Part shown: positions 1,930 through 45,430 of the stretch, piece by piece
Position numbering within the stretch: the stretch's first letter is position 1
Layout of the letters: each line of letters opens with the position of its first letter
NCBI GenBank assembly: GCA_965113315.1
Contig: OZ220372.1
Strand: one strand, 5' to 3'
Source of the DNA: Podarcis vaucheri
Lineage: Eukaryota
DNA length: 64,000 bases
Program-made: the position numbers and the translations under genes
The notes under the pieces: generated by a model
Database searches by the model: none
The model's input: only the letters and a program-made list of their open reading frames with translations
What the model was told of the DNA's origin: nothing

Positions 1930-1995
1930 CTTCATGGGCACAGCAAGGGCAGAAGGAGAGAGGTCTACGGCGTGGTGTCCCGGCATTGGGCTCAA
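1930..1995 (-). CDS. MICAL3: MICAL3 cassette exon inside bMERB (66 nt): VEPNAGTPRRRPLSFCPCCAHE
   Basis: Acceptor ttggttctattgaag|TT after about 200 nt of pyrimidine-rich AG-free sequence, donor GAAG|gtaatg, phase 1-1, CpG-rich. Confidence 0.8.
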
Positions 1996-4249
1996 CTTCA
2001 ATAGAACCAAAGATGGGAGAGGAAGAAAGGAAGGGAAGAGGAAGTTGGAAGTGGAGAGGAAGAGAGGAGGAGAAACAGGGTGAAAATAAACAGACAAGCA
2101 AAAGGACAAAAAAGCACAAGAGTAAGAAAGGAAACAACAAGAAGAAGTAGAAAAGAAAATAATAATACAAGAAATGGAGAAGCAGAAACAAGGGGAACAG
2201 TCTACAGATGGAACATCCTTTGTCAACGCGAATAATGGAGAAGAGCAGACTGTGGCACTGGGAGGGGAAACAGTGTGGGCCACAAAAGTTACTGTGATAA
2301 TGGGGAAATGCCAACATTTGACATTTCTTGTGCTTGGTGACTTTTCACCCTCCATGTCACATGGTGCAGTTAAGAGATAAAAGCACTAAGAGGAGGGTGG
2401 ACAACATTAAGTTTCTAAAAGACCAGGAGAGCAAATAGGTTTTAAAAGGCCATCTTGAAAATTAGCTTGGCACATTCCATGTGGTTTTTTTGTGACATTG
2501 TCCAAGGAAGTAGGTTGACAGTGGCAAGTATTATGTGTTTAGTAAACAAAGGCAGATCATGGCGCAAAACAGGACTGACTGCCTATGATGGGCAAACAAA
2601 CCAAGACTAAACCAGGGATACAGAACCTGTTGTCCCCCTGCCCCAAAAGATTTTGGATTCTCATTCACCCCAGTCAACATGACCAACAGTCAGGGTGATG
2701 AGAGCTGTAGTCCAGCAACTTCTGGAAAGCCAAATGTTCCCCTATCCTGGGTCTAACCAAAGCCTTGACCGGTATTTTACACATATTCATGCATAGTTTG
2801 TATTTCTGGCCCTGCCAATATCAAGGGTAGACAGAAAGTTGAGGACTATGCCCTACTGGTATGTTTGTTTGTTTGTTTGTTTGTTTGATTGATTGGGGGG
2901 GGGGAGAAGTTTGAGTATGTGGCAATTAATTAGATAAAACACAGTAAATTAACATTTCCCAAATTTCTGATAAAAGAGGTAGTTTGTATTAAAAAATAAT
3001 AAAATGGGAGGAATACTTCTCAAACTTACACACTCTGATGCAGAGAATAGCCTCTTCCTATGGGTTGGCACTTATAGGAACCATCAATTATCCAATGAAT
3101 TCCTCGGTTTGGGAATTATTGTGGTAGATTATACATAAAGAGATGAATAATCTTATAGAATAGGGATAAGGAACTGGGTGCTGCTGTGTACAGAAGCCCC
3201 AGCAACCAGCTGATCACTGGGGCTTGAGTAGCGCAGTCCATGGTGCTTTGTTAACTCCCAGTGATCTATATATTACAGAAAGACCTGTGGCCCATTGACT
3301 AATCTGTGAGTAGAATGGAAGTGAAAGAAAAATGCCACTGTGTAACAAGGAGCAACTGAATTTATAAAAAAGAGGACATTCATAACCCACTGGAATCAGA
3401 TCTACACGCACATATAATGGAGAGGGAAAGCCTCAGTTCTCATTTACGAAGATAAGGCCTGGGAAGGGAACAGCTTTTAGAAGGGACCATCACAGAACTA
3501 GAGCAGTAACACACAGGACAGACCAAAGTTAAAAGGGAGGAAGCACATCAGTTTGCAAATAGTGTGTGAATGAGCAATGTGAATCTCTCAACAGGAAGAA
3601 ACATGTATACTCAGTGTGAAAAGGGTTAAAAGTACATCACATATACATGTTACATGCTGCCCATCTGTACGTGAAGACTCATCTTGTTTGACGACATTCC
3701 ATAGTATCCCCAGACAACTTTCTTCTCTCTCCCCCCCCTTCCAAAAAAACCAAACCAACAAATCGAATGCCTTAAAAGTATTTTTGTCGCTTGGGAAAGA
3801 GATCCATGAAAATCCATGTAGTGTAACAATGGACACAGGTTTTTCTTTAAAGTGGCAATGCAATGGTGCTTTGTTTTTACTTCGCAGGTCTCCTTCAAGG
3901 GCTAGTCTTGGATAGATATGTATTCCATTCTTAGTATGTGTAAAAAATACAAGAATACAAGTGGGTTGCTTGGATTAAATGGTTCTAAAATGCACAGTCA
4001 AGCTGTACACCAAGGGAAATACTCTCTGAATATTCTTGCATTTGCTGAAGTTCTTCCTCAGTCATGATTAAGGTTAAGATGACCTTTATGTTTTGCTTTG
4101 AACTGGGTGGATTCCATTGTGTACCGGGCTGCTACTAGACCAGGCTTCTATGCAGATTCAGTGTGTATCAAGGCTATATATGGAGCTTCTACCACTTCCA
4201 TGGTTGCAGCAACCTAGTTCTAGCTGCCACACTCAGTGATACAGATCCT

Positions 4250-8140: not shown

Positions 8141-11100
8141 TTTATTGTGCAATCTGCCTCCATCTAACCCAGTGACCCAGCTGGAGTATGAGTCTGACCA
8201 AAGGGTTTGGAGCTTAGCACCAATAGCCCTGAATGTAGCCACTGGAATTTTGCTTCCAATGATGGATATTGGAGTCCAAACCAAGAATAATGGGAGACAC
8301 CTTCATGCCAGCACCCAAAATTGCTGCTGGTGCTAAACACTAAAGTGATGAGAAGGAAATGCCTGCACTGAGCCCCTTCTCAGCACAACATCCTTCTCCT
8401 GTACTCACCAGGTGATCAAGCCATGACTGCTGAGCATTCTTAGGCCATGCATATGCCATACAAGAACATGTGCAGGCATTCACGGGTGTGGCATATATCT
8501 CTGCCATATATAGCAACTGTTTCTGTAGGGGTCCTAAGAATACATCTGCACGCTGAATCTCTCTCGTTTCAAAGCAAGAGCATTTAGTAGCTGGATCACA
8601 AATGAACATATGCCCAGGGAATAGCAAGAACGTGGTTGGAACATGTTTCCTCCTTTATCTTGAGCAGAACCCATTGTGAATGCAGAAGTCAACTCAGGTT
8701 GAGACCCATTGGTTACATTTACTGGCAAGATGAAGGAGAGGACTTTCTTTCACCACCTTCAGAAGTATATATAAATTTTAGCATTTATGCGGTGCTTTGT
8801 GAAGTGCCTTGGCTATTCAAACCAATCATCCTATTATATCTATTACAAGAGGCATAGAAACGTATTATATGCAACCATTTAAGGCAGCCATTATTAAGCC
8901 CATACTTCCCCAAGGTGGCTTAGTGAGAACAGCAGAGGTGAGGTCTGAACCAGGGATTCCCTAGCTGACAGTCTCTTAGCCCCTACGCTACAGTGACTCT
9001 TGAGCACTCTGGCAGCCCTGTGAGGAAGTACTGAACAAACACCAGTCACAGAGGAGTATAAAAAGAACTAACACTACAAAGCCACGTGTGTCTTTTTCTG
9101 CACATAACACTGCATTTTATTTAAAGGGATACTGCCAAGTAGTGAAGTTTTCTGCTGGGGATTAAAAGAAAGAAAGAAATCAAGATAGATTAAAATAATA
9201 ATGATCTTCCATTCGGAATTGTGAATTATTACTGCTATCTGGGCTGGAGTTGAAACTAGCAAAAATAAAAAATGTCTTTAAACCCCAAAAGTGTAGGGAA
9301 GAAGTAGCCATGGCTAATATTGCGTACATTTATCCAAACAGGAAATGTAGGGAACAAAAGGATATAATCGTGAGAAGCAAATGAGATTTATTAATTTACA
9401 TGCTAGTTCTTTATGACAGAAAGTGAGGTTAGTTAATGTGAAAAACGACAGTGTCCCTTTAAATGACTCCGATGACTACTTTTTAAAGCCACTGTTAGCA
9501 AAAATGACAAGACTGCTGCCTTCAAGAGGGAATTAGGAAGGGAAGGGGGGGGAAGGAGAAGGAAGTGTGGGAGCTGCATCAGCTAGGAGCAGGACCTGTT
9601 AGGTGTAACTTTGCATTAACCCTTTTACAGCTCTGTCTGTGGGCACACAATGCCCCCTAGCGGCACACTTGGAAAGAAACCCCACATAGGCAGAGCACTG
9701 GTCTCCAGAGAGGAGCCAGCAACTCCTTCTAGCAGGGATGTGTCATTTTGCTTTGAGCAAGGGCTGGAGAGCCAACAGCATTTGCTCCACCTACTGATTG
9801 ACTCCAGGTGAGTGGAGGCATGGAGAAAGGGCTTAAATCTTTCTGTTATCTCCCACAACATGTTAAAACAAGAAATAGTTTGGTGGGCAAGCACCTCAGG
9901 CACTTAACTCTCCAAACTGACCTCTGTATTTAGCTTCCATGTCAGCTGCTGAAGTATGGAGGAAGAAAACTGGCAGAGCATTTTGCTGCTCACAATGGGG
10001 AAGAAAGGGTCTATGTCTCCTTTGCATGGAGGAAAGGTGCAAAATAATGAAAGGGGGACCCTTTGAGATTTGGGACTATGATAGGGCCAAGTTAGGAAAT
10101 TCCTGGGGGCCTATAACCTCCTGGGCTACCACTTACCTATTTCTAAACTATGAGGGTTGAACCCACAAAACACTGTTGATCTCCTTAACCTGCAAACTGC
10201 CAGTCTGAAGAACACGGGTAGCTTGCTTGATTTTTATGGAAGAGACGCAGCAATAGTTCAAAAACATTAGTGATATACAAAAGTCACTTTAAGGAGACTT
10301 GGCAATACATCCTTCTGTCACCAACTCCCAAGGAGTAAGGACCAGAATTTAAGACACCTTGGAAAACAGCTGTAGTACCAAAGATGTGTTGAATCAGTCC
10401 TGCATGACTGGTAACCCACCATGTCAAATGTAGCCCACCAGGGTTTCAAGCAATATCTGATGTTTTGTTTTGCCTCAGACTGCAAAAACAGGAAGGCTAT
10501 CAAGTACCTGCAATGTCATAATACATGACCGGTAAGCTTGATGGGACACAATTTGTGCTGGCCTGTGTTAAAGTTGTAATATTACTGCAGAGTGGGGGGT
10601 GTTATTCATAAAAAAGTCACTATACATGGGAGTGGGGAGGGGGGGGGAGAAAGACAAAAAAGAGAAAAGAATAGGAACTATATCATGTTGTGGTGATCTT
10701 TCGAGCGTGAACTTTACACAAGGAAAGAGAAAGAGCCTGTGAATACCATCTGAGGGCTTGTTCAAACTCTTTAATTTCAGAAATGACAGGGCATGTGCAA
10801 CATTTGTGTACTCTCCTGGCCACCCACCCATTTGTAGGAACTCTAGCACTCAAATTGCAGTTTAGCAGTGCAGATTAAGTGTGATAATCTGTACAACTTT
10901 CCCTACAATAACAGGCAACGGTATTTAAAGAAGCATAGCATTTAAAAAGAAAATATAGCAGTCCTTATAAAGTGTAACAAAGTGTGTTGAGGGAGCAGCT
11001 GTCACTGCTTTGAGGGTTGGGGCAATCCTTGAGGGAGAATAAAGTATATAAGTGCTAGATTATCTTTGGGAAGAAAAATCTAATCAATAGTTTGGATTTA

Positions 11101-12551: not shown

Positions 12552-12602
12552 CACCCAGGTGCAAGTCGATGAGGTCACTGTAATAAGACTCTCCCCAATA
12601 GT
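12552..12602 (-). CDS. MICAL3: MICAL3 cassette exon inside bMERB (51 nt): DYWGESYYSDLIDLHLG
   Basis: Acceptor gattccttgttgtag|AC, donor GGTG|gtatgt, phase 1-1. A tandem donor 3 nt upstream would give 48 nt. Resembles an insert recalled from vertebrate MICAL3 isoforms. Confidence 0.8.
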
Positions 12603-17590: not shown

Positions 17591-17684
17591 CTGCTTCTCC
17601 CCTAAGAGCCTTCTCAACAGCAACTCCCCTCTCCTCCAGCTGCCTTTGCTTCTCTTCTACTTGCTCCAGCTGTCGTTGGATAAT
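17591..17684 (-). CDS. MICAL3: MICAL3 coding exon (94 nt), bMERB: IIQRQLEQVEEKQRQLEERGVAVEKALRGEA
   Basis: Acceptor tcttttcccatag|ATT, donor GCAG|gtacct, phase 0 to 1. Typical bMERB sequence. Confidence 0.97.
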
Positions 17685-18754
17685 CTATGGGAAAAGAGGG
17701 AAAACACACACATAGGTTCCCATTCTCCTGTGTTCAAATGGCAGGATACTAATTTCAAGAATCTCCAGTGCTTCCAAAGCAGACCAGCGCCACCTAAGCG
17801 CTGTCCCAGAGGCACACACCAGAGGGGCCTTAAGGTTTTGTAACTGATGATCAACTCCTGGGGGAAAAGGGAGCATTGATGTTTTCCAAACAGTGGCCCA
17901 TCTGGGAATTCCACCCCCCCCCCCAAGTACCTGGTTGGGCAACATGCTCTCTATGTGTCCTTAAAAATGGTGGGTGAAGGATTCAGGGTGTGCGCACTAT
18001 GGGGACCAGGGGCTCGTCTGCACTTTTGCTTTCCCCCAGGGAAATCTCCTCTTTAGCACTGAAGAGTGGGTTTTCATGAGGCAAGCAGCGGGGCGAACAG
18101 AAAACTTCTCAGACTCATGCTTTCTAGGCATGGGACAAGCAAAGTATGGACAAGCCCTAGATGTGTGGGAAGTACTCACACACCTTTCTCAAAAATACCT
18201 TCAAATAATTTGGAATCTTTCCTCAAATCCTACCTTTTCCACAACATCTCTTAACCACAACCCCCTACTATATTTGAGTTATATGAATTTGTGTATATTC
18301 TTCCTCTTGCCCCAGTGCCCACCTTCCTCTCCTTTGTCTCCATTTGGTCAAAATCTAGACTGAAAGCTCCTCAGGGCAGGGATATGCCTTTTTGTTTGTG
18401 CTGCTGTGTGAAATGTCTTCAGGATATTGATAAGTCACACATTCTCCAGCTACTGTTTCGGATCCGTACAAGGCAGAAGTGTACATAGGTATATGCTCAT
18501 ACTGGTGTCTTACAAAAGCGGCACTCCAGGCAGCAACAAGAGAGTAATATGTATCAAACCTTACATGTAGGAAGTGCAGTTAATTATGGGAAAACTTCAG
18601 GACCATACCAACAGACAGGTCAATGTAATGTGACCTTCCTCGAGACATGCAGTTTGCTGATGCACACTGCAAAGATGTGCACATAGAAGGTCATCTTCTT
18701 AAACGCTCATGATTTTTTCTTCCTGGAAATTATGGATGAAAATTATGGCTTTAC

Positions 18755-18862
18755 CTGAGCCCTGTGTAACCTCTTCAGCTCCTCCTGCTTGGCTTGACGG
18801 CGAGCAGCTTTCTGCACCCGCCTGGTCAGTTTGGCATTGAGCTCATCCTCCGTGTATGCTTT
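18755..18862 (-). CDS. MICAL3: MICAL3 coding exon (108 nt), start of bMERB/coiled coil: KAYTEDELNAKLTRRVQKAARRQAKQEELKRLHRAQ
   Basis: Acceptor ctctctttattgctgcag|AAA, donor CAG|gtaaag, phase 0-0. Confidence 0.97.
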
Positions 18863-20487
18863 CTGCAGCAATAAAGAGAGGAATGCATTTCAGTCCCTTA
18901 CAACAAAGCTGTCAGCCTCAGTAAGTAGGAACAGAAGGTGCTACTTGCTGGGCTTTCTTCTCAGTGGGCAAACTGTCAATTTGAGTGCTAACAGTGCAGT
19001 GCGTGGGCCTTGGTGCAGAAGTAAGGTGTGAAGGAAAGGCATGAATCAGGTGCAAAGCAGTGATTTAACAGAGAGCTTCCAGTTACAGCTGCATTCTCTT
19101 CAATTCTCCTTGTGGCTTGCCCTAAAGATAGGAGGTGTCCCTGATTTCATCAACTTTCTTACAAAGAAGGGAGCCTATTGTATTACTTTTTGACCTAGGC
19201 AAAGTAAAAAAAAATAAACCCATGACCAAATCATCTTACAAAGTAGGCTGAGAGTTCGTTGTAGATTAAAGCACGTGGTATACTGCCTACTTCCTTGTGC
19301 TACCATGAGTCCAGGTTGCAACTCCTACCAATCACTTAATCAGCAGGGCATGGAACCACTCAACCTGCATTTTCAATGCAACAATAGAGGAAACTCATGA
19401 TCCAAAGGCCTATGTAATGCACTAAAGGCCTATGTAATCACTTCAACCTGCAAGAGGGAATAATGGCGATATGAATTCTTTCCTATATTAAAAAGTCAAT
19501 TCTTAGCACATACAAAACTAGAACACAATGAGGAAAGCTACACAAATATCCTTCCAGTTAACATAAAAACATTCTAGGCAAGCATACAACTGTGAGAGCA
19601 CCCTAACGGCAGTCTTAAATGGTCAAGTAGCAGTTGTGTCACATGGGCCTGCTGATCATACAACTTAACTATAAATTTGTGGTGTGAACTAGCTCTATGG
19701 GGTTATAAGCTGCCTATGTCTTCTAGTTTTATGGACACATGCTCCAGTGTCTTTTAAACATCTTGTCAAAATCATTAATATACACAACTAGTTTCAAGAT
19801 AGACATGCAACTTACAGAGTTGCTTTGGGGCTGAGAAATCACATCCATGTTGTAACAAGATGTGTGGAGCATGTGTTTTCCTAACCTATTATCCTCCCTT
19901 GACAATTCAGAGCTGCCCCTCATTGACACAAATATCCCAGCATCCCCTATTACCTTCATGCCATTTTAAAAAATCAAGTCAACAAGATTTGGGTGGCTGA
20001 AATCCTGGTCAGATTAGAGATTGGAAGTCATTAGCGTTACCAGAGTTTATTAGTGCTAAAAAGATGCTAAATCACAGGAAGATCACTTTGGAGCCCCACA
20101 AAGCCCATACCTAACATTTTCACCGGTAGCTTATGTAAGTATTTGGCCACAGAATGTGTAAAAGTGATGTGTTTGCCCTGAGAAAAGCAAATCCGTGAAT
20201 TGCCTCTTTCACTGTTTTCTTATTCAAGACTCCAACCTGAAACCAAGTGCTACTTCTCATATTATTTTTATATGTTAAAATCCACACTTCAGCAGGAAAA
20301 CCTGCATTTCCTAAGCTGAGAATGCTTGCACATTTCTTTCCCATTTGGCTTAATGTATGCATCAAGAAGTTGAAGCATATACTATGCCAAAAGAAGAAAA
20401 CACACCGGGATGACAACTCTCACACTACAATGTGCACGCCTTCATAGATGTGTAGATTTCGACACACAAAATGGTAACATGAGAATA

Positions 20488-21912: not shown

Positions 21913-21963
21913 CTTTGACGCGTATGATCTCTTGAATGCCAAGGCGTGTGGGACGTAAATCGA
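21913..21963 (-). CDS. MICAL3: MICAL3 cassette exon (51 nt): SIYVPHALAFKRSYASK
   Basis: Acceptor cctcccccttttaaag|TCG, donor AAG|gtagtg, phase 0-0, CpG-rich. Resembles an insert I recall from some vertebrate MICAL3 isoforms just before bMERB. Confidence 0.82.
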
Positions 21964-26495: not shown

Positions 26496-28361
26496 CTGCA
26501 ATGGTAAAGAAACAAATCAGATGACACAGCCAGAGGAGCAGCTGGCATCATAACGAACTTAGATGATGAGTCTCTTGAAGTCTGAAAAAAACAACACACC
26601 ACCCGCTGCTGCTACATTGACTAGAACAGATGCCCCTTTCTCCCGGAGCAATGCCCTGGCCGTTTGTGATTCCCCCTCCCCATTTTTAATGATGTTCTTT
26701 GACATCTGTGTGCTCAATTTCTTTAATGCTGAAGGACACATTTCTCCTCCCTGGTCCCTACTAAATTTATTTCTAACCTCATCACTGAGAGCCATGGTGG
26801 TGCAGTGGTTAGAGTGTCAAACTGGGCAGGAACTGGGGAGACTCGGGTTCAAATCCTCACTTGGTCATGAAGTTCACTGGGTGACCTTGAGGTATTCACC
26901 TAGCCTATCTCACAGGGTGGTTGTTGTGAAGATAAGAAGGAGTGTCTGTTTATGCATCTATGAGTTCAGTGGAAGAAAGCAAATAAACACCAGGTTTATC
27001 TGTCCCTGTTTTACCTACAGTAAGACTACATCCCTCCTCTTCTATGACATGGGAAAGAGATATCGTGCTGCTGGCATTAATTATAATAATCTGCGGAAGA
27101 TCTAAGAGTGTGACCTTTTTGCACCTCCACTAGTAACTTTCTCAGATGCCTTGATTTATACTTCTCCAATACTTTTCTTCAAAAAGCAGTGTAGATGTTT
27201 CTTGAAGAACAGCTGGGACTTGTTCTTTCCATGCCAAGCAAGTTATCTGGAAGGTATGCTACCAATTAGGCTGATACCATTGCAACTGGAATGGAAGTTT
27301 ATGAGCTGGGCCTCAAGCTGCAAGTTGCTGAATATTTCTGATTTCGTCTGAGGCACCATTATTACTTATTCTCCAGATAATCAACCTGCTATTTCAAAAG
27401 TTATAAACTGAGTCAGACAATATATGAGAAAGAAAACCATCAGATTACTCAGAACACTATCCTCCAAACGGATTTGTCCAAGTGGCTTAAAATAAGAGCA
27501 GGGCACAGAACCAGATGAACCTAATCCTAAACTCCCAAGCGTGGTTGACAATGAAGCAGACTGTTCATACTGACTTCACCAGGCTTGAGATGGGAACTGG
27601 GGGGAGAAAACGATGACTCATACATCAAGCCTAACACTGCTGCTGATTCAAATATCCCTAGAGTCTGGGTGTTGCAGCAAAATGGAAACTCATGGATGTG
27701 TCCAGTCATGCCTCACAAAACTAGGCCACAGATGGGATCTTTTGTAGCCCATTTGGGGCCCTTGGATAAAACAGCTGCTCCCAGTTAGGCAGGGGACAGT
27801 AATACCACTGGGTAGCTGTGTACCCCTTCCCCAAATGTGCATGCCTATGAATATGCTGCTTAGGAGTAGGGGGCTAATTCTCAATCATCATCAGAGCAAC
27901 TGCCCCCCCCCCCAATCTGGCCTCCCACAAGAAAGCTGTTTCAACAATTTCATTTTTAAAAGAGAAAGAGGTTGCAAGAATTGAAGAAGTCCCTGAAAGC
28001 ACCCACAGAAAATATACATGTGCCTTGCATACATCACTTCAAAGGGAGCGTGTGGTGTGTTGTTCGCCAGATACCATCCATGACTGCTTGGAACTGGGGT
28101 ACATGAACATCCAGAGGAACAGATATTCCTATTCCTCGAGCTGAAACTAGAAATCCCATGCTTTTGTAAATTACTATTTTTTTTCATGCTTTCCTTGTTC
28201 CTCTTCTGCCTTTTTATGCTTATCTCTCCCCTCCCCCCTTAATCACCTCCCAAATCACAGGTTACATTGCTCAAATATCTCTTGGGCTCATATTCTGTGC
28301 ATGGAAGGAATCTGCAAAAGATTTTCAGGTTCACTAAAGAATGCAGTCAGTGACACTATAC

Positions 28362-30213
28362 CTGCTGCTCTAACAATTGGAGACGCCTTATGCTTCCCAG
28401 AATCCACTGTGGCCCCACTGGAAGGTGTACTAGGGCAGGATTTGTCATCTGTCTTTTTCTTCTTGTCTTTCTTATAGCCAGAGAACACAGACTTCCACAG
28501 TGATTTGGGCTTCGTGGCTTCCTCAGCCGCACTGCTGGATTTGTCAGAGAGCTTGCTGTCATTCTTGGACTTCTTCTCCTTTTTGTTCTTGCGGGGGGAG
28601 AAGAGAGAAGTCCTTTTCTTACTCTTCCCTCCAGAGCCTTCTGAGGATGTGACTGACCCATCACGCCCACTGGTGTCTGCAAAGGGTGAAAAGAACCTGT
28701 CACTACTAGCCTCGTGTTTCAGCGTGGGGCCTTCGCCAGCTTTCATACCCAAATGCTTCTGGGATTCAAAATACAGCTCTTTGGTCTTTGAAGGCATGGT
28801 AGATGCCTTGTGCAACTTGGCAGCGCCAGCAGCATTGGCCATCTCCAGCTCTTTCATCTTGCATAGCTGCTTAGCCATGGCATCGCGTAAGGCCTGGCTC
28901 TTGATGGACTTCTCTCTGGCTCTCATTCTTTCCTCTGCTAGCTCCTTCGCTTCTGCAGAGACTTGAGAGAGGCCTCTCTTTTGCTGGCTCCCCCCTTCCA
29001 TTGATGGTGGCCCACCATTCTCCTTAACAAAATGTAGGTGAAGAGACTTCTCTGGCCTCGGTCTACTGGGGGGCGTGTAATATTTTTCATGGATGCTCGA
29101 ATCCTCAGTCCTCTCATCGTAAGTGTCCTCCACGTCATCGGCAAATGGTATCTCATCTACACTCTCCACAAATGATTTCCGTACCTCCTCTCTGGAGGGC
29201 TGGGATGGCTCCCTGGCTGGCCGGATCCTTTCATTGGCTGCTGGTGGCGGGTGAGGTGTTTGCATAGAAGCCGGCTTAGACTCAGCCTCGTTCTGCCAAG
29301 TTGCCTGGTGCCTTTTTCTCCGTAGTGTTGCTGGCTCTTCGTTTTGAGGTGGTGGAGGAGGAGGGCTGGATGGAGGAGTGAGCATGGTGGAATCGGAAGT
29401 GTTGAAACTCTGGCTGGCCAATGTTCTCATGTTTGATGAACTGCCCTGAAGACCCAGTCCAGAACTGCTGGACAGCTCTCTCTTAACATCACTTAAATTT
29501 TTCAACTCTCTCTCTGATGGGGACTTTGGAGTCAGCAAAGAAAACTGCTCACTGTCTAGCTTTGCTGTGACTGGCTTCTTTGACTGAGGTTTTACAATGT
29601 GGATCCCCTTCTCTTCTGAAATACGCTCAGGGGTGTATGTTTTCAGGGGGGCAGACTCAAGGGGGGAAATGGTAAAGCTTGGCTCTGGTCCTCTGCTTCT
29701 GTTCACAGGGGTGAGACCCAAACTCCTCCGGATTTCAGCACTCTTCATCCAGAACTCCTCCACAAGATTATTCCTTTTCAAAGCTTCTTCTGCTGTGGTA
29801 GGGCTCCCCAATTTTTCCATCTCTCCATCTTGATTTTTTAGGGCAAGCTTGGCCAAAGGAGTGGAAGTTAAGGCTGGGACTGGCTGGAAACACACAGGTT
29901 CCCCTGGAGATTGAATGGATGCTTCACCAGAAGGTAAAGGCTGTGAACAAATAGGCAAGGGGGTGGCAGGTGGAGATGCAGGTGCTGCAGGAGTTGCTGG
30001 CTGCGATTTTACAGGTGATGTTGGTGTGATAGTCTCAGGCATTGCAACTGGCTGGGACCGTATTGGAGAAAGTGGTGCAGGTGGGCTTTTGACTTTTTGG
30101 TCATCAGAGATCTTGACTTGCGCCTCCTCTCCTGGGAGGAACGGTTCAGGGAAAAACCGTACATCTGGGGATTCATCTTTGCAGGGCGCTGTTGCAAGAA
30201 GCTCCTTTGAGTC
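28362..30213 (-). CDS. MICAL3: MICAL3 large Pro/Ser-rich coding exon (1852 nt): DSKELLATAP...FFPEPFLP...SPIRSQP...VDSGKHKASPIVRAA
   Basis: Acceptor tctgtctgtgtag|GAC, donor GCAG|gtatag, phase 0 to 1. Contains most of ORF 28288..30042 with many MICAL3 motifs. Confidence 0.97.
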
Positions 30214-42643: not shown

Positions 42644-44184
42644 CTACAGCAGGGGGAGTCACACATCAACAAATAGCATTGATACAGAAATTAGAGCAGA
42701 ACAAAGAAAAAGAGAAGGACAGAGAATCAGAAAGAACACAGGGGTGTTTTAGGGAAATCCAGAAAGGTTCAGGACTGCTTCACCTATAAGAAACCTTACA
42801 CAGATTTCACTTACGTGTACAGAATTAAATGCAATGCGTAGGAACACCACCCCATATGATGAACACCTGTCTACTTTGTTGTGTGTGCCTGTTGCAAAAA
42901 ACTCTTTCCTTCTTCATGATAGGTATATATAAATTAATCACAGCTGTATTTAGGGTTACAAGTAATTTCCTTGCCAAAAAGCATTATCTGTTCAGGGGGA
43001 AAAAATTATGCTTGAAAATGCTCTTCTGTTCCAAGGCATTCATCAACTAAATTTCTTTCTGATGTGCAAATTTAAGTGAGCTGGTGGTAAAGGAATTCTG
43101 AGAACATCACATTTGTAAACGCGCTTGAAGCAGAAGGTGCCGGATTATCTGTCTCCAAGATGCAACTTTACAATATTCAGGTACAGAAATATTTTGTAGT
43201 GATAACTCCAACAGCAAGTTCCTTGGTCTGTTTAATAGCACAATTGAAGCTGCCTTGATCTCTGTTGTCTTTAACTCATCAATGGCCTTTACTGAAAAGC
43301 CACTTTGTTCTTAAACAGGTGCTGCAAGAGATGTGTGAGTTCTCTGGCAAAGGAGGCCCATTTTGAAAGCTGAACTCCTCATTTGGAAGAGCCCCACCCA
43401 CCAAAGATATATATCTGATGAAATTGATCGGGTACCAGCTGCCACGACAAAAAAGTGACTTGAGCAGCAAAGCTTTCTATTTCCACAAACAATCCTCAAA
43501 AGTAATTTAAAATGCCAACACCCTATAAATCCCTGAAGACTGAATATTATGCAGATTTATGGTTCCCAAACCTTTCAATAACTGAGACACCTGCCTGTTC
43601 TGATCTGTAACTGATACTCCCTTAAGCAGTTAATGCAGAACTGTTGCCATTAGATGCAAGCATGAGTATCTACACATAACACTTTTTGTGACTCACTCTT
43701 GATTTCCCAACTACCTTAGGTGGTAATCCCTAGTTCAGACATGTGGTTTTCCACCCCTAATTAATCCATGTCTTAAGCAGTCATAAAGGAGCTGAGGAGG
43801 GGGGGGAATCCATTTTTTGATCCAAGTGCAGACCCCTATATAACTAAAAGCAGGGGTCCTTCTGGTCTGGAAGCAAAGCTTTGTCCAACCTTTCTGCTAT
43901 TCACAGGCCTTTGCTGCTGGCTCCTAGTTCTGAGCTGTGATAGACTCTAAACCTATGCAAACACATCCAAGGCCAAATAAATACAGCCTCTGAACATTTC
44001 ATCACCAACAGCCACAGAAACATGCCAAACTTTTCACTTAACCTATTTACTGAATCACAGTTCCAGCCCTGACTTGCCTCTTCACCCTGCTACTGAACTA
44101 CTTCCTTGGCCTGCAGGCAAATCAATCTTTCATTACTTCCCTAACCCTGGCAATGGACCTTTGAGCTCACCCAGCTGCCATCAT

Positions 44185-44439: not shown

Positions 44440-45430
44440 GCCTGAATGCAACGCATGACAACTGGGATGCTGCAAGGTTCTGTCTTGGGCCCAGTGCTGT
44501 TCAATATCTTTATGAATGACTTGGATGTAGGTATGGAGGGGATGCTCATCCAATTTGCAGATGACTCAAAACTGGGAGGGGCAGCCAATGCTGCAGAAGA
44601 CAGAATGGGGATTCCAGATGACCTCAACAGATTGCAGACCTGGGTCATAACTAACAAAATGAATTTCAGTAGGGACAAATGTAAAGTTCTACACCTGGGC
44701 AGGAAGATCCAGGTGCACAAATGTAAGATGGGCGACACCTGGATTGCAAATAGTACATGTGAAAAGGATCTAGGGGTTTTAGTAGACCACAAGTTTCGTA
44801 GGAGTCAACATGCAGCAGCAAAAAAGGAAGAAAGCTACTTCTATTCTAGGCTGCATCAACAGAAGCACAGTGTCCCGATCAAGGGAACTCACTAGTCCTG
44901 CTCTATTCTGCTTTGGTCAGACCACACCTGAAGTACTGTGCCCAGTTCTAGGCACCACAATTTAAGAAGGATAATGACAAGTTGGAACGTGTGCAGAAAA
45001 TGGTGACTAAGGTGATCAAGGGTCTGGAAACCAAGTCTTATAAGGAATGATTGAGGAAATGTGGTATGTTTAGCTTGCTAAGGAGAGACTGAGAGGAGAT
45101 ACGATAACCATCTTCAAATATCTAAAGGGCTGTCACATGGAGGATGGAGCAAGCTTGTTTTCTTCTCCTCAGGAGGAGAGGATCTGAACCAATGGATTCA
45201 AGTTACAAGAAAGGAGATTTTGACTAAACATCAGGAAGATCTTTCTGACAGTCAAGAGCTGTTCGACAGTGGAATAGACTCTCACAAGAGGTGGTGGACT
45301 GTTATTCCTTTGAGGTGTTTAAACAGAGGTTGGATGGCCATCTGTCATGTATGATCTTGCTGAAATTCCTGCATTGCAGGGGGTTGGGCCGGATGACCCT
45401 TGGGGTTCCTTCCAATTCTATGTTGATTCC
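44440..45430 (+). mobile_element. CR1 LINE, 5'-truncated (3' part of the ORF2 reverse transcriptase plus 3' UTR)
   Basis: ORF 44446..44895 has QGSVLGPVLFNIFMNDL, FADDSKLGG, KCKVLHLG and EKDLGVLVD. Frameshifted downstream. CR1 tail GGATGACCCTTGGGGTTCCTTCCAATTCT. Confidence 0.95.

Follow-up and report, generated by a model that had tools for sequence, protein, structure and literature searches.

A 66-nt cassette exon of MICAL3, placed inside the Rab-binding bMERB domain, emerges from predicted gene models as a real and ancient component of the gene, which can be followed from lampreys to apes and which offers the protein an optional 22-residue insert built around the core Arg-Arg-Arg-x-Leu-Ser-Phe-Cys-x-Cys-Cys. 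By analogy with the STREX exon of the BK channel, we propose this cassette as a candidate splice-switchable S-palmitoylation anchor, a reading to which we give about even chances. In the current view, it is Rab binding to bMERB that recruits and activates the MICALs (PMC5026484, PMC11315924).

The exon lies in the window analysed here, a 64,000-nt stretch of the Podarcis vaucheri genome (C29:57784001-57848000 of the assembly), where the host gene runs on the minus strand. This gene is lizard MICAL3: the large upstream exon at approximately 28357..30207 (-), which encodes a Pro/Ser-rich linker and was used for gene identification, is 99% identical to Podarcis MICAL3 UniRef entries in a protein database comparison. 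The exons on both sides of the cassette encode bMERB, with matches to positions 1-28 and 35-63 of Pfam PF12130 (30.5 and 40.5 bits, for a cut-off of 24.6) and to the human MICAL3 structure PDB 5SZG (E 2.9e-10). The long helix leading into the domain starts in the exon AYTE...RLHRAQ (approximately 18752..18865, -), and helix 1 of bMERB comes from the exon IIQRQ...KALRGEA (17591..17684, -), which carries the first of the two Pfam segments and aligns with residues 14-44 of the 5SZG chain. The downstream exon GMGKK... falls just beyond the window (L001 ~9006, minus strand), 2,923 nt from the 66-nt exon, and is followed by two further exons that end in ...GFNLNWS and a stop codon. As a separate observation, the last MICAL3 intron (L001 ~8151-8243, -) is 93 nt long, stop-free and in frame, so that its retention would put 31 extra residues between bMERB helices 2 and 3.

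The 66-nt exon itself spans 1995-1930 (-), between an acceptor ...TTGAAG and a donor GTAATG, and its translation in frame with both flanks, VEPNAGTPRRRPLSFCPCCAHEG, contains no stop. The preceding ...KALRGEA exon stops at 17591, leaving one G over (phase 1), and the cassette has the AG/GT bounds, the length divisible by three, the equal phase at both ends and the absence of stops that are expected of a frame-preserving exon. The clean 66-nt exon of phase 1-1 described in the sequence-only reading of this DNA is thereby confirmed in its splice bounds, phase and frame. The same reading had placed it 15.6 kb into an intron; the distance holds (15,595 nt), but the notion of one simple intron does not, because a 51-nt cassette exon (12602-12552, -) sits in between. 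A chance open stretch is not a tenable explanation either, since gecko, python and bird proteins, as well as the Podarcis protein A0A670KMS4, have the identical 22 residues at this junction. The 23-residue peptide matched no Pfam family.

The exon is already present in many predicted isoforms of RefSeq and UniRef. Its 22 residues are identical in Podarcis A0A670KMS4, gecko, python and most birds, and orthologs occur in apes, carnivores, amphibians, teleosts, sharks and lampreys. All evidence of inclusion comes from predicted gene models, and the counts that follow are therefore not inclusion levels. In a first survey, which used the large upstream exon as query and took the best 120 of 734 matches, the ALRGE anchor was found in 105 of the listed proteins and absent from 15; three anchored loops were incomplete, leaving 102 full loops. 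Among these, 77 had no insert, 17 the Cys exon only, six a 17-aa exon only and two both, which puts the 66-nt exon in 19 of the listed full loops and leaves 83 without it. When the survey was restricted to 50% representatives (best 150 of 988 matches), the exon was found among the matches listed in the lamprey XP_078715109.1 and in one sturgeon model, with the Cys insert counted in one of 57 measurable loops, all of these being single models. A lamprey query biased to both inserts returned the Cys exon in 120 of its best 120 matches (of 2459), and those listed included sharks, rays, teleost mical3a, amphibians and birds. When the query was a primate protein biased to the 17-aa exon, 15 of the best 120 of 4374 matches had VEPSGGTPRRRPLSFCPCCVQEG, 59 had the 17-aa exon only and 46 had neither, the listed carriers of VEPSGGTPRRRPLSFCPCCVQEG being chimpanzee, bonobo, gibbons, dog, fox and ferret.

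Models with and without the exon also coexist within single groups (Podarcis, gibbons, skates, caecilian, teleosts and lampreys), and one of the six Podarcis cluster entries, A0A670KMS4, includes it. The two loop exons occur in every possible combination (both, either or neither) among skate, caecilian, anglerfish and carp models. At the level of database models, these observations bear out the earlier description of the exon as optional. On the negative side, the 22-aa insert was absent from all eight human entries retrieved (P0465-P0468, P0483-P0485, P0521), which, despite the chimpanzee, bonobo and gibbon models, probably reflects annotation sampling. Full-length proteins of Logan origin spanning the loop were all without the insert among the matches listed, and the Cys insert was found in none of five hagfish isoforms and in none of the four mical3b-like models with a readable loop. 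The hagfish and mical3b-like absences, as well as the rarity of the exon among the 50% representatives, are weak evidence, since they are based on single models.

The sequence upstream of the exon is itself unusual. An AG-free tract of 204 nt (1998..2201, -) precedes its weak AAG acceptor; among the 4436 gaps between successive AGs on the minus strand of the window, none is longer. Pyrimidines make up 84.5% of the 200 nt next to the exon, more than in any other of the 1276 windows of that size, and a TTGAC that resembles a branch point is found some 231 nt before the exon, just 5′ of the AG-free zone. By sequence, the exon belongs with those having a large AG exclusion zone, defined by at least 150 nt together with a branch-point-like site at the 5′ end. 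Among human introns, 165 of 67,334 have an exclusion zone of at least 150 nt (Gooding et al. 2006, PMC1431707), and exons of this kind are more often cassettes, with PTB regulation found in the few tested (PMC1431707). Two sturgeon models that read through into the 66-nt exon contain 53 and 57 residues without K, Q, E or R before it, an indirect indication that the sturgeon intron may hold a similar tract. The pyrimidine tract suggests repression of the PTB type as candidate regulation for the exon: PTB-family proteins bound to it would silence the exon by default and restrict its inclusion to particular tissues or stages. For the P1 cortex, several repressed Mical3 exons, one of them PTBP2-dependent, have been described; the accessible part of that report gives neither size nor coordinates for the PTBP2-controlled exons, which may or may not include the 66-nt exon (PMC3896118), and Mical3 is not present in the one supplement of it that was searched. 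A search of sequencing runs listed 24, of which 20 contained the large MICAL3 exon, none of these 20 being recorded as RNA.

Within the protein, the insertion falls after A1883 in human numbering, and helix 2 of human MICAL3 starts at about residue 1891 (PMC5026484). In an AlphaFold2 model of the python protein P0012, computed from a 43-row alignment, the three helices (675-733, 767-814 and 823-870) keep pLDDT values mostly of 88-97, and the insert (738-759) is modelled as coil with a pLDDT of about 49-53. The insert is thus predicted to be an exposed, flexible loop between bMERB helices 1 and 2, as the sequence-only reading had anticipated with its loop insertion inside the domain. Disruption of a bMERB helix was considered and rejected, as the position is that of a loop. 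In the alignment with MICAL1, R933, L945, V950 and L952 are in register and L956 corresponds to the Leu of ALRGEA, so that the insert starts four residues past the equivalent of L956. This residue is a contact of Rab site 1 (PMC5026484) and lies within the CH/LIM/RBD core required for MICAL1 autoinhibition (PMC11315924). The high-affinity Rab site occupies the C-terminal half of bMERB (PMC5026484), which is enough for Rab8A binding, whereas MKLP1 requires the whole domain (PMC5647383). Judged from this alignment, the loop adjoins the low-affinity Rab site and the CH/LIM contacts and is distant from the high-affinity Rab8 site. We infer that inclusion of the exon should leave Rab8 binding at site 2 in place and could alter site 1, the packing of CH/LIM and the binding of MKLP1.

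How the peptide has been conserved was followed in 25 distinct insert peptides, after exclusion of one low-quality bird model. All 25 contain CxC and R-x-[LIV]-x-[FL]-C, and 24 contain CxCC, the exception being a teleost model with CPCW in its place; the Cys cluster stressed in the earlier reading is in this way retained from lamprey to apes. The variable positions flank this core, preceding the Arg run and following the Cys, and the teleost and gecko peptides share 15-17 of their 22 residues. The insert is nonetheless less conserved than the flanking exons, where the majority residue reaches 99% on both sides. The 787,108 residues upstream of the loop in the proteins retrieved, a set of high redundancy, contain CxCC only three times. 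Kinase and docking motifs were scored with consensus patterns that we take to be the accepted ones. RxxS is found in 22 of the 25 peptides and RxRxxS followed by a hydrophobic residue in 20; the site Ser is replaced in three, Cys and Arg being better kept. RVxF-like patterns occur in 21 peptides, RxLx[FL] in 18, basic-x-hydrophobic-x-hydrophobic in all 25 and TPxR in 15. The earlier suggestion that RRPLS fits a basophilic kinase site stands for the RxxS and RxRxxS patterns and fails for the PKA type: a PKA site was rejected, with RRxS in 0/25 peptides. A CDK site as the core function was set aside as well, TPxR being restricted to those 15 of 25, and so was a self-contained zinc finger or Zn site, given three Cys, no conserved fourth ligand and a nearby His in only 9/25.

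The S-acylation reading rests on the fact that conservation centres on the Cys cluster and the Arg/hydrophobic core, and on the exposure of the predicted loop. It is one of the candidate functions put forward in the sequence-only reading, alongside a redox or metal switch and a change in localisation or autoinhibition. An acylation cassette would need an exposed group of conserved Cys close to basic and hydrophobic residues, and the insert is predicted to present one. At palmitoylation sites, di-cysteines are overrepresented, as are hydrophobic residues no more than four positions away (PMC5498535). Inclusion of the exon would give the isoform a membrane attachment of its own through the Arg/Cys core. 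The arginines and the Leu/Phe pair would bring the loop to an acidic membrane, where a zDHHC enzyme could acylate one to three of the Cys. An anchored tail would then keep MICAL3 on Rab8/10 vesicles or at the plasma membrane, with a residence less dependent on Rab-GTP; the C-terminal Rab site of high affinity would be left unchanged, and the low-affinity site 1 and the CH/LIM contacts might loosen or re-orient. The serine of RxRxxS lies two residues ahead of the first Cys, and its phosphorylation could control acylation in the manner of BK STREX.

Several known systems resemble parts of this proposal. The STREX exon of the BK channel (KCNMA1) is also a vertebrate-conserved alternative exon that brings basic residues, a kinase Ser and a palmitoylated Cys-Cys pair into a cytosolic tail (PMC3256903). 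It belongs to a membrane channel, though, its acylation is demonstrated and its serine is a PKA site, in contrast to the RxRxxS and the candidate acylation of MICAL3; moreover, 11 of its 21 residues are basic, versus three Arg in the MICAL3 insert, and no homology is claimed (PMC3256903). The large polybasic domain and the PKA-type RRxS of STREX are both missing from the insert. The CCPCC motif of PI4KIIalpha likewise places C-P-C-C after hydrophobic residues, in a loop inserted in a folded domain of a trafficking enzyme, but this insertion is constitutive, contains four Cys, follows an amphipathic helix and comes from an unrelated protein (PMC3974213). EHBP1 and EHBP1L1 already combine bMERB with a lipid anchor, and their constructs need the CaaX box for endosome localisation, although this is an irreversible C-terminal prenylation and not an internal, optional and presumably reversible candidate acylation (PMC5026484).

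There are counter-points. Di-cysteine motifs are enriched in transmembrane proteins, and soluble ones are characterized by the single-Cys motifs CxxL and CF (PMC5498535), whereas MICAL3 is soluble and its insert matches none of CxxL, CF and FxCC. The conserved pattern of the insert also fits protein-docking motifs. Palmitoyl-proteomes are blind to the insert site when they are reported against the canonical entry. No match was found in two supplementary files of PMC5498535; PMC12874130 has rows for the canonical mouse Q8CJ19 only, with one Cys554 peptide that does not bear on the 66-nt exon; and in PMC13380729, which does not cover the exon, MICAL3 appears only in Table S3, one row coming from the total-proteome sheet with and without 2-bromopalmitate. 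The fuller version of the proposal, in which the hinge of the autoinhibitory, Rab-binding hairpin of MICAL3 has since early vertebrates harboured a palmitoyl anchor switched by splicing and gated by phosphorylation, is put forward tentatively, and we would sooner expect it to fail than to hold in all its parts.

Three other functions can be imagined for the insert. MICALs release H2O2, and the Cys cluster could be a redox or metal (Zn/Cu) switch that retunes autoinhibition, possibly across a bMERB dimer or near LIM. Three near-invariant Cys would suit such a switch, as would the proximity of the loop to the H1/H2 groove, in which the LIM zinc-finger loop of MICAL1 is held (PMC11315924), and the apparent dimer formed by MICAL3 bMERB (PMC5026484). 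We consider this unlikely, as the fourth metal ligand is not conserved (a His lies near the Cys in 9/25 peptides) and the invariant Arg and the hydrophobic pair would be left unexplained. Improbable too, in our judgement, is a short linear motif, be it an Akt/RSK-type phosphosite or a site at which a MAP kinase, PP1 or cyclin docks, which would recruit a regulator to the autoinhibitory tail. The frequencies of RxRxxS-hydrophobic, RxxS, RVxF-like, RxLx[FL] and basic-hydrophobic patterns given above are all compatible with it, but these patterns are degenerate, none of them requires CxCC, and each except the basic-hydrophobic one is missing in several lineages that retain the Cys.

The exon could alternatively be a steric spacer whose length matters more than its residues: a longer helix 1-2 hairpin would weaken Rab site 1, the packing of CH/LIM or the binding of MKLP1. 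The insertion so close to the L956 equivalent and the dependence of MKLP1, unlike Rab8A, on the whole bMERB (PMC5647383) are in line with this idea, and the same loop also accepts the 17-aa exon and, in teleosts, a third insert. We hold out little expectation for it, given that the likeness of teleost and gecko peptides and a Cys/Arg core maintained to lamprey go far beyond the needs of a spacer, and that the helices stay intact in the AlphaFold2 model. An exon rarely included or purely predicted, with no function at the protein level, would agree with its absence from the Logan-sourced loop-spanning proteins and the eight human entries, but it is very improbable in view of the frame, junction and Cys motif maintained from lamprey to apes, the four combinations with the 51-nt exon and the dedicated AG-free tract upstream.

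Automatic annotation already contains the exon, which is apparently uncharacterised. The predicted isoforms that share it at the same junction (UniRef100_A0A670KMS4, python XP_007438694.1, chimpanzee XP_054531688.1 and lamprey XP_078715109.1) are automatic models to which no function is assigned, whereas the reviewed human isoform Q7RTP6 lacks the insert and PDB 5SZG has the short-loop spacing. Searches of the MICAL literature, with subscription journals, VastDB and SwissPalm outside their scope, yielded no paper recognisably on the 66-nt exon, and the accessible text of the structural and binding papers cited here uses canonical MICAL3 numbering or makes no mention of the insert. If the fuller, phosphorylation-gated version of the palmitoyl-anchor reading is correct, 66 nt would turn a Rab-recruited cytosolic oxidase into a lipid-anchored isoform, zDHHC/thioesterase cycles together with Akt-type kinases would determine where and when it oxidises actin, and this layer of control would have escaped structural and cell work on the skipped isoform. 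A Cys cassette that is conserved, optional and located at the hinge between helices 1 and 2 would offer MICAL3 a possible second, lipid-based route to membranes, of relevance to exocytosis, cytokinesis and the axon initial segment. Should acylation be absent, the exon remains an ordinary, already annotated alternative exon.

MICAL3 has other cassette exons in the window. The 51-nt exon at 12552..12602 (-), upstream of the 66-nt exon, inserts 17 residues (DYWG..., DYWGESYYSDLIDLHLG) into the same bMERB loop. It is identical in lizards, birds and apes, occurs in hagfish, lamprey and teleost mical3a/b models, and its peptide is acidic and aromatic, versus the basic Cys exon; CAC, YGCY and ACTAAC motifs lie downstream. 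A second 51-nt cassette exon, SIYVPHALAFKRSYASK, is located upstream of the coiled coil (21913..21963, -) and is followed by three TGCATG elements (at about +35, +122 and +205) and an ACTAAY at +102. A 51-nt Mical3 exon is activated by RBPMS, RBFOX2, MBNL and QK (PMC12721327). The exon at 21963-21913 is a good candidate for this RBFOX2-activated exon, on the basis of its downstream motifs, the window having two 51-nt candidates. Like the 66-nt exon, this smooth-muscle exon is a MICAL3 cassette; it is regulated, adjoins the coiled coil and is a proposed modulator of autoinhibition, but it encodes 17 aa and is a different exon (PMC12721327). The events in PMC4465641 and bioRxiv 10.1101/373704 are different MICAL3 events; in their accessible text, PMC11557892 has MICAL3 in the reference list only and PMC6941957 gives no MICAL3 isoform detail.

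Further variation was seen around these exons. The teleost mical3a models P0581, P0606 and P0586 have a third, basic insert of 17 aa (GLYK...KRRS) in the loop, and in Poecilia models the 3′ end of the Cys exon is lengthened. The window segments 42644-42540, 37249-37136 and 34837-34736 (-) match a turtle isoform and not the Podarcis entry P0006, and they are probably alternative exons. The exons at 42645 and 41050 are preceded by AG-free stretches of 129 and 137 nt. On the plus strand, an intronic open stretch at 44446-44892 resembles a LINE reverse-transcriptase fragment, presumably of the CR1 type.
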